Source: Patescibacteria group bacterium (lineage in GTDB: Bacteria > Patescibacteriota > Microgenomatia > UBA1400 > PJMF01). From it: a DNA stretch of 64,000 nt. Positions within the stretch are counted from its first letter, which is position 1. Every line of letters begins with the position of its first letter. The stretch is taken from positions 5,724 through 69,723 of the forward strand of contig JAHDXH010000002.1 of NCBI GenBank assembly GCA_023382875.1, in the 5' to 3' direction. Below are positions 11,775-14,264 of this stretch, in pieces. Both the position numbers and the translations under genes were made by a program. The notes below the pieces were generated by a model. It searched no databases. It worked only from the letters and a program-made list of their open reading frames with translations, and had not been told where the DNA came from.

Positions 11775-14264
11775 TTAGTCTTTGTTGCTTTCGATAGCGG
11801 GCAGTTCAAAGAGTCCAAGCAAACTCTCGAACTGTGTGCCTTTCAGGATGCTGGTCACGTATTCCATCAATGGAACGCCAGCCCGTTGTGCTGAACCGCC
11901 GAAGGTTTCGGCAAACTGGTTGAGCAGTTGACCGCCGACAATCTGGCGCAGATACGCTGAGTCATGCGGCGCGATTGCCGACAGGCGTTTGACCATCGCT
12001 TCGGTTTGTTGCTGTAACATTTCGATGCGGAGCGCGTCTTGACCCTTCTGGATAGTCGCCTGAGCTTCTGCTTGTCGCAGGTTACGCTCCATCACGATAC
12101 CGGCAACGATGTCATTGACTGCTTCGCGGGCGCGAGCTTCTGCCTCGCTGATGCTGGTTGTTTCCGCCAAAATCGCCAGCTTTTTCTCGGTGATGGTCGC
12201 TTGTAGTTCGGCAAGCTGGGTGAAGGTTTCAGCTTCTTCGGTGGCGGTGGCTCGTTGCAGGTCGAGCTTGACCATGTTGACGCGGGAACGTTCCAGCAGA
12301 GCTTGCACTTCTGCATCGGCAACGGCGAAGTCACTGATGTAGATGCGCTCAATTTGCATGGAGTTGTTCGCAAATTCAATCGGGGTCTGTTCACCTGTTT
12401 CGGCGGTGGTGATGACCTGTGCCAGCATGTTGGCGTAGCCAGTTGGGGTGATTAGTTCTTCCAACTGGTGGGCGGCGATGTAGGGGACGAGCTTGGCTTG
12501 CAAGGTCTCAAAGACCATTCGCCAAGGATTCTCGATGCTCCACCATGCCTTGCCGACTTCACCAGTGAAGTTCACGTTTGCCACCAGTTCCAGCACGACA
12601 TCCACACCATCGCTGGTCTGACCTTCAACGCTGAACGTCCATGCGTTGTTGGCGACTTGCAGGTAAACATCTAACTGTGTGGAGTCGTTTGGCTTGATGA
12701 ACGTCACCAGTTCCTCATCGTATTCGAGGAAGGTGCTTTGCGGTCCGACCACAAAGCGGGTTTCGTTGGCGGCGTTCTTAATCTGCACAGCGAAGTTTTG
12801 CCAGACGTTGATGCGTGGGGCTTGCGGCACTTCGTTGCCGATTTTGATAACGCGAGGTTCAGAGAACTGGTTATCGCGCTGAGTGGAGAAGGCGATTAAA
12901 GCCTCAAACCCACCTTTGCGGGTGGGTGCAATCTGCTTAGTATCTGACAATTGCAGGTTGCTACGTCCGCCACCGCGCAGGGTATCAGACTCACCAAAAT
13001 CCATCCGGTGAGTTTCTCGATTACCCCTTTCAACTATCCGCCCGGGGTACCAAAGGCGTTGCTCGTTTTCAGTGAGCATCCTTTCGATAAAGACTTGCTG
13101 GACAGGATTGGGCAAGAGCATTTCAGGACCCTTGACCAACTCAATCTGACCAGTATCGCGGTTGAGCAGGTAGTAGGCTTTGCCAGCTTCCACCGTGACG
13201 GCATACAAGACCAGCTTGTCGCCGTACATGATGATGTCGAGCCTTTCATCGGGATAGAAGAACGGAATGTCTTCGCCCGTGATGAAGCCTTCTTCGCCAG
13301 CTTGCCATTGCTTATCTGACTCATCGGTAAAGTCCACCAGAGCTTTGACGTAAATGCCCATCCGTTTCTTGCCGAGTTCAATCGGGCGGAAGGTGGCATT
13401 GTTCTGGTAGGTGTAGAAAGTTTCGCCAGCATTGCGCGGGAACACGATGCCCGGTCCGCGCACAACGGTCTTTTGACCTGTTTCGCTGACCAGTACGCAG
13501 TATTCCAACTGCTGGAGGACGAGAGCTTCACGGACATACTTACCAGTGCCGTCCTTCACGACTTCGATGCCTGTCACCGGGACGAAGAATGAAACTTCGC
13601 GCCCCGTGATGATATATTGTCGCCCTTGAATGCGGTGATTGTCGGTTGCCGCAGGTTTCTGGACGATGGGTTTGTTTTGACTTTCGTCGCCACTATTCCC
13701 ATCAGTTTCACCATTGGTTACGACATGAGTGCCTCCATCCGTATCGATGACATTGTTGGCAACAACTTCTTGCCCCAAAGTCCAAGGGGCAATGCCCATC
13801 GTCTGTTCGTTCCAGTTTGCCAGAGCTTCGGTTTCGTTGTTAACTTCGATAACCAAATACTGACCAGTGCGCAGTGTGTGCGCATCAATCACTTTGGCTT
13901 CCTGACCGGGCCATAGCGCGAAGTGGCATGGTCCGGGAATGACTTGTATCTCGCCGAATTTCAACGGGGTGTCGTCATTGGCTTGACCCGATGTGGGATG
14001 CGGTTTGTCCTTGCTTGCTGGATTGCTCAAGATGACGTATTGATTACGCCGAGCATTGATGGAGCGTTGAATCGCCCTGTCTTTGGGTTGACCAGATTCC
14101 ACCGCCATCAACCCGCCTCGACCATCAGGAATCATGTGTCGCTGATTTTCGGAGGTGGTGACGTTGGTTGGCCCAACGTGGGTGGTATAGCGTCCGGTAC
14201 TGATGGTTTGTAACCACAGAAACTCGCCAACGCTCAATGCAATATCTGATGACTTCTCAGCCAT
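11775..14264 (-). CDS. major vault protein (MVP)-like protein; GC-anomalous single-gene insertion
   Basis: Translation shows MVP-like repeat segments (KALVDFTDESDKQWQAGEEGF vs the MVP consensus [26 protein letters not shown]), FVVGPQSTFLEYDEELVTF (cf. [19 protein letters not shown]) and a C-terminal shoulder/cap-helix-like region rich in Ala, Glu and Gln. Start taken at Met37 (MAEKSS...), preceded by AAGGA. G+C is markedly higher than the flanks, with many spurious alternative-frame ORFs. Confidence 0.75.
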   Translation of the reverse strand: MAEKSSDIALSVGEFLWLQTISTGRYTTHVGPTNVTTSENQRHMIPDGRGGLMAVESGQPKDRAIQRSINARRNQYVILSNPASKDKPHPTSGQANDDTPLKFGEIQVIPGPCHFALWPGQEAKVIDAHTLRTGQYLVIEVNNETEALANWNEQTMGIAPWTLGQEVVANNVIDTDGGTHVVTNGETDGNSGDESQNKPIVQKPAATDNHRIQGRQYIITGREVSFFVPVTGIEVVKDGTGKYVREALVLQQLEYCVLVSETGQKTVVRGPGIVFPRNAGETFYTYQNNATFRPIELGKKRMGIYVKALVDFTDESDKQWQAGEEGFITGEDIPFFYPDERLDIIMYGDKLVLYAVTVEAGKAYYLLNRDTGQIELVKGPEMLLPNPVQQVFIERMLTENEQRLWYPGRIVERGNRETHRMDFGESDTLRGGGRSNLQLSDTKQIAPTRKGGFEALIAFSTQRDNQFSEPRVIKIGNEVPQAPRINVWQNFAVQIKNAANETRFVVGPQSTFLEYDEELVTFIKPNDSTQLDVYLQVANNAWTFSVEGQTSDGVDVVLELVANVNFTGEVGKAWWSIENPWRMVFETLQAKLVPYIAAHQLEELITPTGYANMLAQVITTAETGEQTPIEFANNSMQIERIYISDFAVADAEVQALLERSRVNMVKLDLQRATATEEAETFTQLAELQATITEKKLAILAETTSISEAEARAREAVNDIVAGIVMERNLRQAEAQATIQKGQDALRIEMLQQQTEAMVKRLSAIAPHDSAYLRQIVGGQLLNQFAETFGGSAQRAGVPLMEYVTSILKGTQFESLLGLFELPAIESNKD

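Follow-up and report, generated by a model that had tools for sequence, protein, structure and literature searches.

The window analysed here, a 64,000-nt stretch of a Patescibacteria (candidate phyla radiation, CPR) chromosome (contig JAHDXH010000002.1), carries on its minus strand a full-length, uninterrupted gene for a homologue of the eukaryotic major vault protein (MVP). The gene is functional and under strong purifying selection, and its product adds a divergent member to a known, under-appreciated prokaryotic MVP-like family. The CPR clade in which the gene is found probably gained it by horizontal transfer into an ancestor. The reading favoured below, and considered likely as a whole, is that of a functional, highly divergent prokaryotic MVP of horizontal origin that would form a homo-oligomeric cage in the cytoplasm from this one protein.

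The gene encodes an acidic protein (92 kDa, pI 4.9) in which no transmembrane segment was found, the highest 19-aa Kyte-Doolittle mean being 1.26. Its start codon at 14264 is the first ATG, and the family alignment begins at the same methionine. A longer form of 865 aa, starting from a GTG at 14372, is open in the window genome only. In the closest relative (L009, 92% identical) the frame is shut 10 codons before the ATG and offers no other start, and an equivalent of the GTG is absent from three other orthologues. As the longer frame is not conserved in the relatives, the 829-aa coordinates are right; the original prediction had placed an open reading frame (ORF) of about 830 aa at the same position and had read it as a complete MVP homologue in a CPR chromosome, and both statements were borne out, the second by the homologues, family profile and structural model described below. 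The NCBI entry MCL4208193.1 annotates the 865-aa form and is over-extended, the additional stretch (14265-14372) being conserved leader. On both strands of window 12092-14213, a dozen smaller ORFs, 60-167 aa long, overlap with the gene (for example 13034-13537 on the minus and 12951-13319 on the plus strand); these are shadow ORFs arising from its high GC content, and antisense equivalents recur and cluster together in other MVP loci.

Homology to MVP and predicted architecture

A Pfam scan of the single sequence gave 14.3 bits for Vault_3 (E = 0.045, aa 486-520; cut-off 28.8) and 14.1 bits for Vault (E = 0.048, aa 303-325; cut-off 27), MVP_shoulder (PF11978) was undetected by this direct scan, and phmmer of the single sequence against all PDB chains returned no match at E ≤ 10. 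These sub-threshold scores are best read as a reflection of divergence and not of missing homology, given full-length matches to Pfam-positive members at E ≤ 1e-99. The homologue search yielded 122 full-length matches with E-values down to 1e-129, which fell into three tiers. The closest comprised five orthologues at 73-100% identity; the second consisted of three proteins (P0006-8) at 33-34% identity, with PF11978; and the third contained more than 100 full-length prokaryotic proteins at approximately 27-33% identity (E 1e-70 to 1e-99), nearly all with PF11978 and PF17795 (Vault_3) and some with PF01505 (Vault). Several of the homologues are labelled 'major vault protein' by JGI.

A family profile was built from 75 members, with the window protein as its first row. 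Against PDB, this profile matched rat, human, mouse and rabbit MVP at E = 8e-46, its positions 461-795 (335 positions) corresponding to rat 457-822, that is, R9 together with shoulder and cap-helix; rat repeats R3, R5 and R6-R8 were matched separately. The MVP assignment of the original prediction, which had been made by eye, thus found only sub-threshold direct matches to Vault and Vault_3 and stood firmly at the level of the profile. Two of its segment matches were located correctly: KALVDFTDESDKQWQAGEEGFITGEDIP sits where the profile aligns rat MVP 118-161 (R3) and coincides with the weak Vault site, and FVVGPQSTFLEYDEELVTF sits at rat R9 and coincides with the weak Vault_3 site. A third, HVGPTNV against VGPKTY in rat R1, is in the right position, but the sub-alignment on its own is not significant. 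The Ala/Glu/Gln-rich helical C-terminus that had been likened to the MVP cap-helix was recovered as a predicted long helix (residues 651-763).

The AlphaFold2 (AF2) model, with a mean predicted local distance difference test score (pLDDT) of 74.7, consists of beta-strand modules up to approximately residue 535, followed by an alpha/beta domain (540-650), helices and a helical tail. When this model was searched against PDB with Foldseek, the top 12 matches were all MVP (1e-22 to 6e-30), after which came R1-R7 fragments and, further down, SPFH cages, and the shoulder gave structural matches to HflK, prohibitin, stomatin and flotillin. Repeats, shoulder and cap-helix follow one another in MVP order, as had been anticipated: tandem N-terminal beta-repeats, a shoulder after the last repeat and a long cap-helix are all found in the predicted protein. 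Self-alignment of the profile revealed in-register internal repeats, with units near residues 8, 248, 356 and 484 and offsets near 110, 212 and 321, and the number of repeat modules is estimated at roughly 7-8, as against nine in rat. The C-terminal segment has a family-wide consensus of its own (AISPxLIAAL..MAPLAILGG). Homology to MVP and an MVP architecture are established through these intermediates, the family profile and the predicted structure. The possibility that a beta-rich protein with a coiled coil, unrelated to MVP, merely resembles it by chance would account for the weak direct Pfam scores and the empty phmmer search, but it is refuted by the homologue search, the profile and the structural matches, and is left with next to no probability.

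The shoulder loop sets the window clade apart within this family. An L-S-T-G-x-P-K motif is present in 70 of the 75 family members, rat MVP having LSAGRPK at this site. In the five window-clade members a 4-residue deletion has removed LSTG and PK has become PN, leaving the loop as FI----KPNDSTQL; given this loss, the inter-subunit geometry or a ligand pocket may differ. In human MVP, residues R504, K506, R507, P508, H509 and R511 of this keyhole loop belong to an NAD+/ADP-ribose pocket between adjacent subunits (PMC12280208; bioRxiv 10.64898/2026.05.01.722283), of which D521 and W545 are also listed as members (PMC12280208). The pocket is not conserved: the aligned loop holds one basic residue, the position of D521 is an invariant N, and that of W545 is V in the family consensus.

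Authenticity, distribution and origin

The same protein was found on several independent contigs, some of up to 437 kb. Over 22,490 nt, a single base separates the window from a 247-kb NCBI contig of a metagenome-assembled genome (MAG). A Logan contig assembled from another run matches the window at 100% identity through both untranslated regions (UTRs). L009 DNA aligns continuously with the window from 19313 to 11666 at 82% identity, spanning the upstream junction. A chimeric assembly, in which a GC-rich foreign fragment had been stitched into a low-GC CPR contig, might be suspected from the abrupt step of 14 GC points that marks either end of the gene. The junctions, however, are identical in separate NCBI and Logan assemblies, the step falls at the start and stop codons with AT-rich UTRs conserved along with the coding sequence, and the L009 orthologue lies in the same upstream synteny. 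The worry over a chimera, raised in the original prediction together with read mapping as the remedy, was thereby excluded by independent assemblies and the shared junction, and such an artefact is given a vanishingly small probability.

The ratio of nonsynonymous to synonymous divergence (dN/dS) was 0.06-0.10 in all pairs of the five orthologues, and the gene is functional on this ground. Between the window and L009, MVP shows 92% protein identity against 78-88% for neighbouring genes, and a dS of 0.65 against 0.8-1.8 for four neighbouring genes. As judged from these sequences, the divergence of MVP appears compatible with vertical co-divergence since the split of the two genomes.

Relatives proved far more numerous than had been supposed. 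A profile search of 1.84 billion representatives (50% identity clusters) gave 827 matches at E ≤ 1e-30 and 1388 at E ≤ 1e-10. Among GTDB species genomes, scanned with three peptide patterns, at least 470 stretches encode relatives; taxon names were taken from the best 80 of these, which include many Myxococcota and Bacteroidota, MAGs labelled Saccharibacteria, Magasanikiibacteriota, Uhrbacteria, Yanofskybacteria and Parcubacteria, and also Riflebacteria, Vulcanimicrobiota, Gemmatimonadaceae, Anaerolineae and Achromatium. A further 269 stretches with relatives came from IMG/VR, many of them located on contigs 100-500 kb long, and three GenBank huge-phage records (LR756500.1, LR756501.1 and LR756503.1; 462-735 kb) encode relatives of about 30% identity over 79-81% of the query. 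The plasmid collection gave no match. The viral-contig and huge-phage relatives (for example L092-L171) are full length at about 27-32% identity and reach far beyond two gut phages; one of them (L102), which has a viral label only, has endolysin-like and NUDIX genes nearby.

Bacterial MVP homologues have been described from myxobacteria, Bacteroidetes, cyanobacteria and Herpetosiphon (Daly et al. 2013 PMC3762200; Sokolskyi 2019 bioRxiv 10.1101/872010), homologues have been reported in two gut phages (bioRxiv 10.1101/2023.11.10.566534), and MVP has been reported in Asgard archaea, with bacterial presence given as 'only a few Bacteria' (PMC12962969). No report linking the major vault protein with Patescibacteria was found in the literature searched, and the papers that mention vaults together with the candidate phyla radiation appear, from their titles and abstracts, not to concern MVP. 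The original prediction had called MVP sporadic in bacteria and its presence in a reduced genome unexpected. Neither description survives these counts, in GTDB, on viral contigs and among representative clusters, or the relatives in several CPR lineages. Such claims of rarity mirror the literature and not the data, and an MVP gene in a CPR genome is unreported, not exceptional.

In a neighbour-joining tree, which carries no support values, the five orthologues form a long branch whose sole sister is the L011/P0006 group at 34-36% identity, all other relatives being at most 33% identical to the window clade. As its nearest relatives are bacterial (30-36%) and eukaryotic MVP is reached only by profile and structure, the gene belongs to a bacterial MVP-like radiation and is not a recent eukaryotic import. 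A donor clade, which the original prediction had hoped a phylogeny would identify, was not found; the grouping with bacterial sequences was obtained.

The composition of the gene is foreign to its surroundings. Its GC content is 0.531 against 0.394 in the 56 other ORFs of the window, and its GC content at third codon positions (GC3) is 0.607 against 0.328 +/- 0.032 in the same ORFs (z = 8.7), the step coinciding with the start and stop codons. All five orthologues (window, L009, L010, L004 and L003) show a GC content of 0.54-0.65 at four-fold degenerate sites and favour C-ending codons; the neighbouring genes of the window, that for L19 included, have 0.20-0.39 at such sites and favour T-ending codons, and the hosts of the five are of 35-40% GC. 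The codon bias of highly expressed genes was rejected as the cause of the high GC3, since L19 and other ORFs have values of 0.32-0.41. Across 56 viral loci, MVP genes exceed their surroundings by a median of 5 GC points (maximum 9.9), a baseline above which the excess of the window clade (+11 to +15) lies. Myxococcota copies match their own genomes in GC. Similar steps were noted elsewhere: in a Magasanikiibacteriota MAG (L013, 6001-8463) MVP has a GC content of 0.63 against 0.44 in its flanks (+19) with a GC3 of 0.89, and in two further CPR loci the values are 0.54 against 0.40 (L078, 6001-8409; +14.6) and 0.545 against 0.448 (L062, 6001-8475; +9.6).

Synonymous divergence among the five copies ranges from a dS of 0.65 to more than 2.5, and identity at four-fold sites is 0.36-0.65, against 0.27-0.29 expected from composition. 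Two readings may be considered. A very GC-rich donor may have supplied the gene at the base of the clade, its composition still ameliorating; the numbers agree with this reading only for an ancestral GC3 of about 0.9. Alternatively, GC-rich, C-ending codons may be maintained by selection or by a biased process.

A single-gene cassette and its chromosomal setting

Flank alignments of the five orthologues showed conservation from about 185 nt upstream of the ATG to about 110 nt past the stop codon, followed by collapse, and different genes adjoin the conserved region in four of the five genomes. The gene is thus conserved together with a promoter, leader, 3' UTR and terminator of its own (Table 1).

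Table 1. Coordinates of the MVP-like gene, the predicted regions of its product and the elements of its cassette (window numbering).
Feature	Position	Strand	Basis and remarks
MVP-like coding sequence	11775..14264	minus	ORF list; 829 aa; stop codon 11775-11777; uninterrupted
N-terminal beta-repeat region, aa 1-535	12660..14264	minus	About 7-8 MVP-type modules (estimate); variable loops aa 157-211 and 414-478
Shortened 'keyhole loop', aa ~521-531	~12672-12704	minus	Repeat-9/shoulder boundary, just N-terminal to the shoulder
Shoulder (SPFH/band-7-like alpha/beta), ~aa 536-650	12315..12659	minus	Profile corresponds to rat MVP 520-646; relatives with PF11978
Cap-helix-like alpha-helix, aa 651-763, kink 699-705	11976..12314	minus	AF2 helices 651-698 and 706-763; profile alignment with the rat cap-helix reaches ~822
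C-terminal helical segment, aa 764-829	11778..11975	minus	Cap-ring position; AF2 helices 770-819
Single-gene cassette (promoter, leader, coding sequence, 3' UTR, terminator)	11666..14450	minus	Conservation limits common to five genomes
Extended -10 element TGATATAAT (TGnTATAAT)	14411..14419	minus	Invariant in five of five copies despite differing upstream genes
5' leader, ~140 nt	14265..14404	minus	Includes Shine-Dalgarno sequence AAAGGA; transcription start inferred; alignment of five copies
5'-UTR box AUCAGCUCUUUAACACUCUCACAAGUC	14316..14342	minus	Inverted repeat; complementary to the 3'-UTR box
3'-UTR box UCACUUGUGAGAGGGUGACUAGACUGAG	11714..11741	minus	Core invariant in five of five copies; pairs with the 5' box
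Intrinsic terminator	11666..11702	minus	Scan; 12-13 bp GC-containing hairpin and T-run; 3' limit of the cassette

The extended -10 element was not reported by a simple sigma-70 scan, which needs a -35 element. The leader contains a conserved TTTAACACTCTCAC, and its consensus hairpin is weak (-1.5 kcal/mol, few covarying pairs). On the 3' side, the conserved region runs through ATCACTTGTGAGAGGGTGA..AGACTGAAGTAAC to the hairpin terminator. The position of this terminator is conserved in relatives and its stem sequence changes in a compensating manner, and the blastn alignment with L009 ends at its outer edge.

The two UTR boxes are complementary over an interrupted 20 bp, in helices of 4, 3, 2 and 11 bp. 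The 17-mer is found nowhere else in the window, its 2 matches comparing with an expected 0.11, and not one of 100 shuffles yielded two or more. In L003, the most divergent copy, both sides of the 4-bp helix have changed and still pair (U-A to C-G, C-G to U-G and G-C to G-U, one compensatory and two wobble). As G-U pairs work only on the sense RNA, these changes hint at pairing of the mRNA ends rather than at a DNA inverted repeat. The predicted duplex of the 5' and 3' UTRs (-25.8 kcal/mol) was no better than with shuffled 3' UTRs (mean -24.5; 175 of 500 as stable), and the case for pairing comprises conservation, uniqueness in the window and the L003 changes, in five sequences with one fully compensatory pair. 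A further apparent copy of the 3'-UTR box, met in a metagenome scan (L091), was rejected as a chance match: it is an unrelated hairpin beside a ParD-type antitoxin, and the accompanying 640-aa ORF is not MVP-like.

The surrounding window is an ordinary CPR chromosome, with genes for a CCA-adding enzyme, a phosphoribosyltransferase, L19, YraN, tRNA-Glu, a methyltransferase, an Ig-domain surface protein, a ribosomal-protein/SecY operon, a class II tRNA synthetase, TGT/QueA and FtsW. No gene for a TEP1-like protein (TROVE, WD40, TIR-like DUF4062), PARP4 or a vWA protein was found in the 64 kb, and Rfam reported three tRNAs only and no vault RNA. When flanking ORFs from 84 MVP loci were clustered, no shared neighbour emerged beyond lineage-specific synteny in at most 10 loci, the larger clusters being antisense shadow ORFs within GC-rich MVP genes. 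The expectation that no vault partner would be encoded nearby, and that any function would be that of MVP alone, holds in the window and across the 84 loci. PADLOC, PHROGs and NCBIfam, applied to the query and three relatives, gave nothing informative, a match to LmuB (E = 0.002) being coiled-coil noise.

A selfish or phage-derived cassette in transit, of little or no function to its host, would agree with the exact restriction of the GC and GC3 anomaly to the single gene, the differing neighbourhoods in five genomes, the position against the 3' end of tRNA-Glu with L009 synteny breaking at the terminator, and the frequency of relatives on IMG/VR contigs and in huge phages. Against this, no integrase, transposase, att-type direct repeat or prophage genes were found, the tRNA adjacency is not common to the relatives, and no close relative occurs on viral or plasmid records; the low dN/dS and the dS of MVP relative to its neighbours fit vertical co-divergence. 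A cassette of this kind was accordingly rated very improbable. A tRNA-targeted island was likewise unsupported, as no att-like direct repeats around the GC-rich segment and no duplicated tRNA-Glu 3' end were found and the tRNA adjacency is not shared. The tRNA-Glu(UUC) itself (11550-11622, plus strand) has its own hairpin (11629-11656) and abuts the MVP terminator, and synteny with L009 breaks exactly at 11666.

Elsewhere in the window, a 1552-aa Ig-domain surface protein (17940-22598, minus strand; Big_13, Big_3_3, CHB_HEX_C_1) whose C-terminal region is hydrophobic is evolving far more rapidly than the genes around it, with 68% identity to L009 over 768 aa and 53% to L010 over 543 aa. The TGT (59448-60650, minus strand) and QueA (60505-61740, plus strand) ORFs are divergent and their 5' ends overlap by 146 nt; at least one of the two start codons is probably over-called.

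Cage formation and comparison with known systems

Eukaryotic MVP self-assembles into a shell alone, through lateral contacts of the repeats, shoulder and cap-helix, and SPFH proteins form closed cups from a homologous shoulder-plus-helix module (PMC12280208, PMC12962969). Since the modules of the window protein are kept in order, the protein is soluble and acidic, and partner genes are absent, a homo-oligomeric cytoplasmic cage is the form of assembly proposed. By analogy with eukaryotic MVP, HflK/C, prohibitin and flotillin, many copies would associate side by side through shoulder and cap-helix, and the result would be a closed dome or barrel, a soluble acidic cage built from one protein alone. 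Transcription would start at the gene's own extended -10 promoter and yield a monocistronic message that ends at its own terminator; equivalents of TEP1, PARP4 or vault RNA are absent. Since its probable horizontal acquisition by the ancestor of the CPR clade, the gene has been retained under strong purifying selection.

An alternative is that the protein acts as an SPFH-type scaffold, in which shoulder and helix form a ring or cup docked on a membrane or other structure and the repeats serve as a spacer or binding arm. The structural matches of the shoulder to membrane SPFH proteins were described above; the full-length architecture with R1-R7-like repeats, however, is that of MVP and not of membrane SPFH proteins, no transmembrane helix or lipid-anchor-like segment is present at the hydropathy maximum given above, and no NfeD- or FtsH-type partner was found near the gene. 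A scaffold of this type was therefore considered unlikely.

Several observations weigh against the cage reading and its individual parts. The query lies below the Pfam gathering thresholds for all vault models, the AF2 model has a predicted template-modelling score (pTM) of 0.49 and two low-confidence loops (aa 157-211 and 414-478), the cap-helix spans about 113 residues against about 155 in rat, the repeats are fewer, and the loss of the LSTG/PK motif is confined to the window clade. As regards horizontal origin, nothing above 36% identity was found outside the clade that could represent the donor, and the conserved UTRs share the AT-rich composition of the host. Neither the literature searched nor this analysis provided evidence of assembly for any bacterial MVP, and the literature search found no published bacterial vault structure. 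With fewer repeats, a shorter cap-helix and a remodelled shoulder loop, particle size, symmetry and ligand pocket cannot be extrapolated from rat. The cage formed by a divergent, acquired MVP nevertheless remains the likely reading.

A further interpretation, speculative and rather improbable, is that the gene represents a distinct CPR vault lineage, marked by the LSTG-deleted loop, an autonomous cassette with pairing mRNA ends and actively maintained GC-rich codons. If true, it would imply an unusually regulated, abundant nanocompartment, which might fill a considerable part of an ultra-small episymbiont cell and have a role in a host-dependent lifestyle, for example in sequestering or storing scavenged metabolites or nucleic acids.

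Vault function and origin are unresolved after 40 years, and papers to 2026 still speak of 'only a few Bacteria'. As seen here, MVP-like shell proteins form a sizeable prokaryotic and phage family that reaches several CPR lineages with tiny genomes. The retention of a 2.5-kb gene at a dN/dS of about 0.07 in reduced genomes, which shed most functions that are not essential, speaks for a useful role of an MVP-only particle, independent of TEP1, PARP4 and vault RNA. Its value is mainly comparative, as no new kind of system is involved and CPR organisms are poor experimental hosts; the cassette, the UTR pairing, the persistent GC3 anomaly and the loss of LSTG are the parts that could repay further work.

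The closest known counterparts are the bacterial MVP-like proteins (the 'Shoulder domain protein' of Enhygromyxa salina, H6L4P8 of Saprospira grandis, A1ZGE7 of Microscilla marina and that of Plesiocystis pacifica), which share with the window protein a length of about 800-900 aa and the same domain order, are alignable with it end to end and are likewise encoded by stand-alone genes. The window protein is 27-32% identical to them (34-36% to its nearest relatives, P0006-8/L011) and forms a long separate branch. It differs in its sub-threshold Pfam scores, the loss of LSTG, the change of PK to PN and its deviant codon composition, and its host belongs to the Patescibacteria/CPR, whereas the others occur in gliding myxobacteria, Bacteroidota and cyanobacteria. 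Two MVP-like paralogues (P0057 and P0061) were noted on one 200-kb Enhygromyxa salina contig, and two copies have been described in Plesiocystis pacifica (PMC3762200); such pairs raise the possibility of hetero-oligomeric shells.

Eukaryotic MVP (PDB 4V60, 4HL8, 6BP7 and 9BW5) is about 13-19% identical to the window protein in structural alignments. The latter probably has 7-8 and not 9 repeats, a shorter cap-helix and a different C-terminal tail, its keyhole pocket is not conserved, and TEP1, PARP4 and vault RNA are missing from the 64-kb window. The eukaryotic shell used for comparison is homo-oligomeric, with 39-fold half vaults and 78 copies. SPFH cages (HflK/C 7VHQ, prohibitin 9O9Z, flotillin 9L3G, stomatin, erlin and QmcA) are membrane-anchored and lack MVP repeats, in contrast to the window protein, which has no transmembrane segment. 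Phage MVP homologues (bioRxiv 10.1101/2023.11.10.566534; LR756500/LR756501/LR756503) are of the same family and length class, but the window gene lies among housekeeping genes with no phage genes, and no viral copy is closer than 32%. Asgard MVP (PMC12962969), compared by description, resembles the window protein in being prokaryotic, with fewer repeats and a predicted cup assembly; it is reported to have five repeats, and half of the Asgard proteins are reported to group with eukaryotes (PMC12962969), whereas the window protein groups with bacteria.

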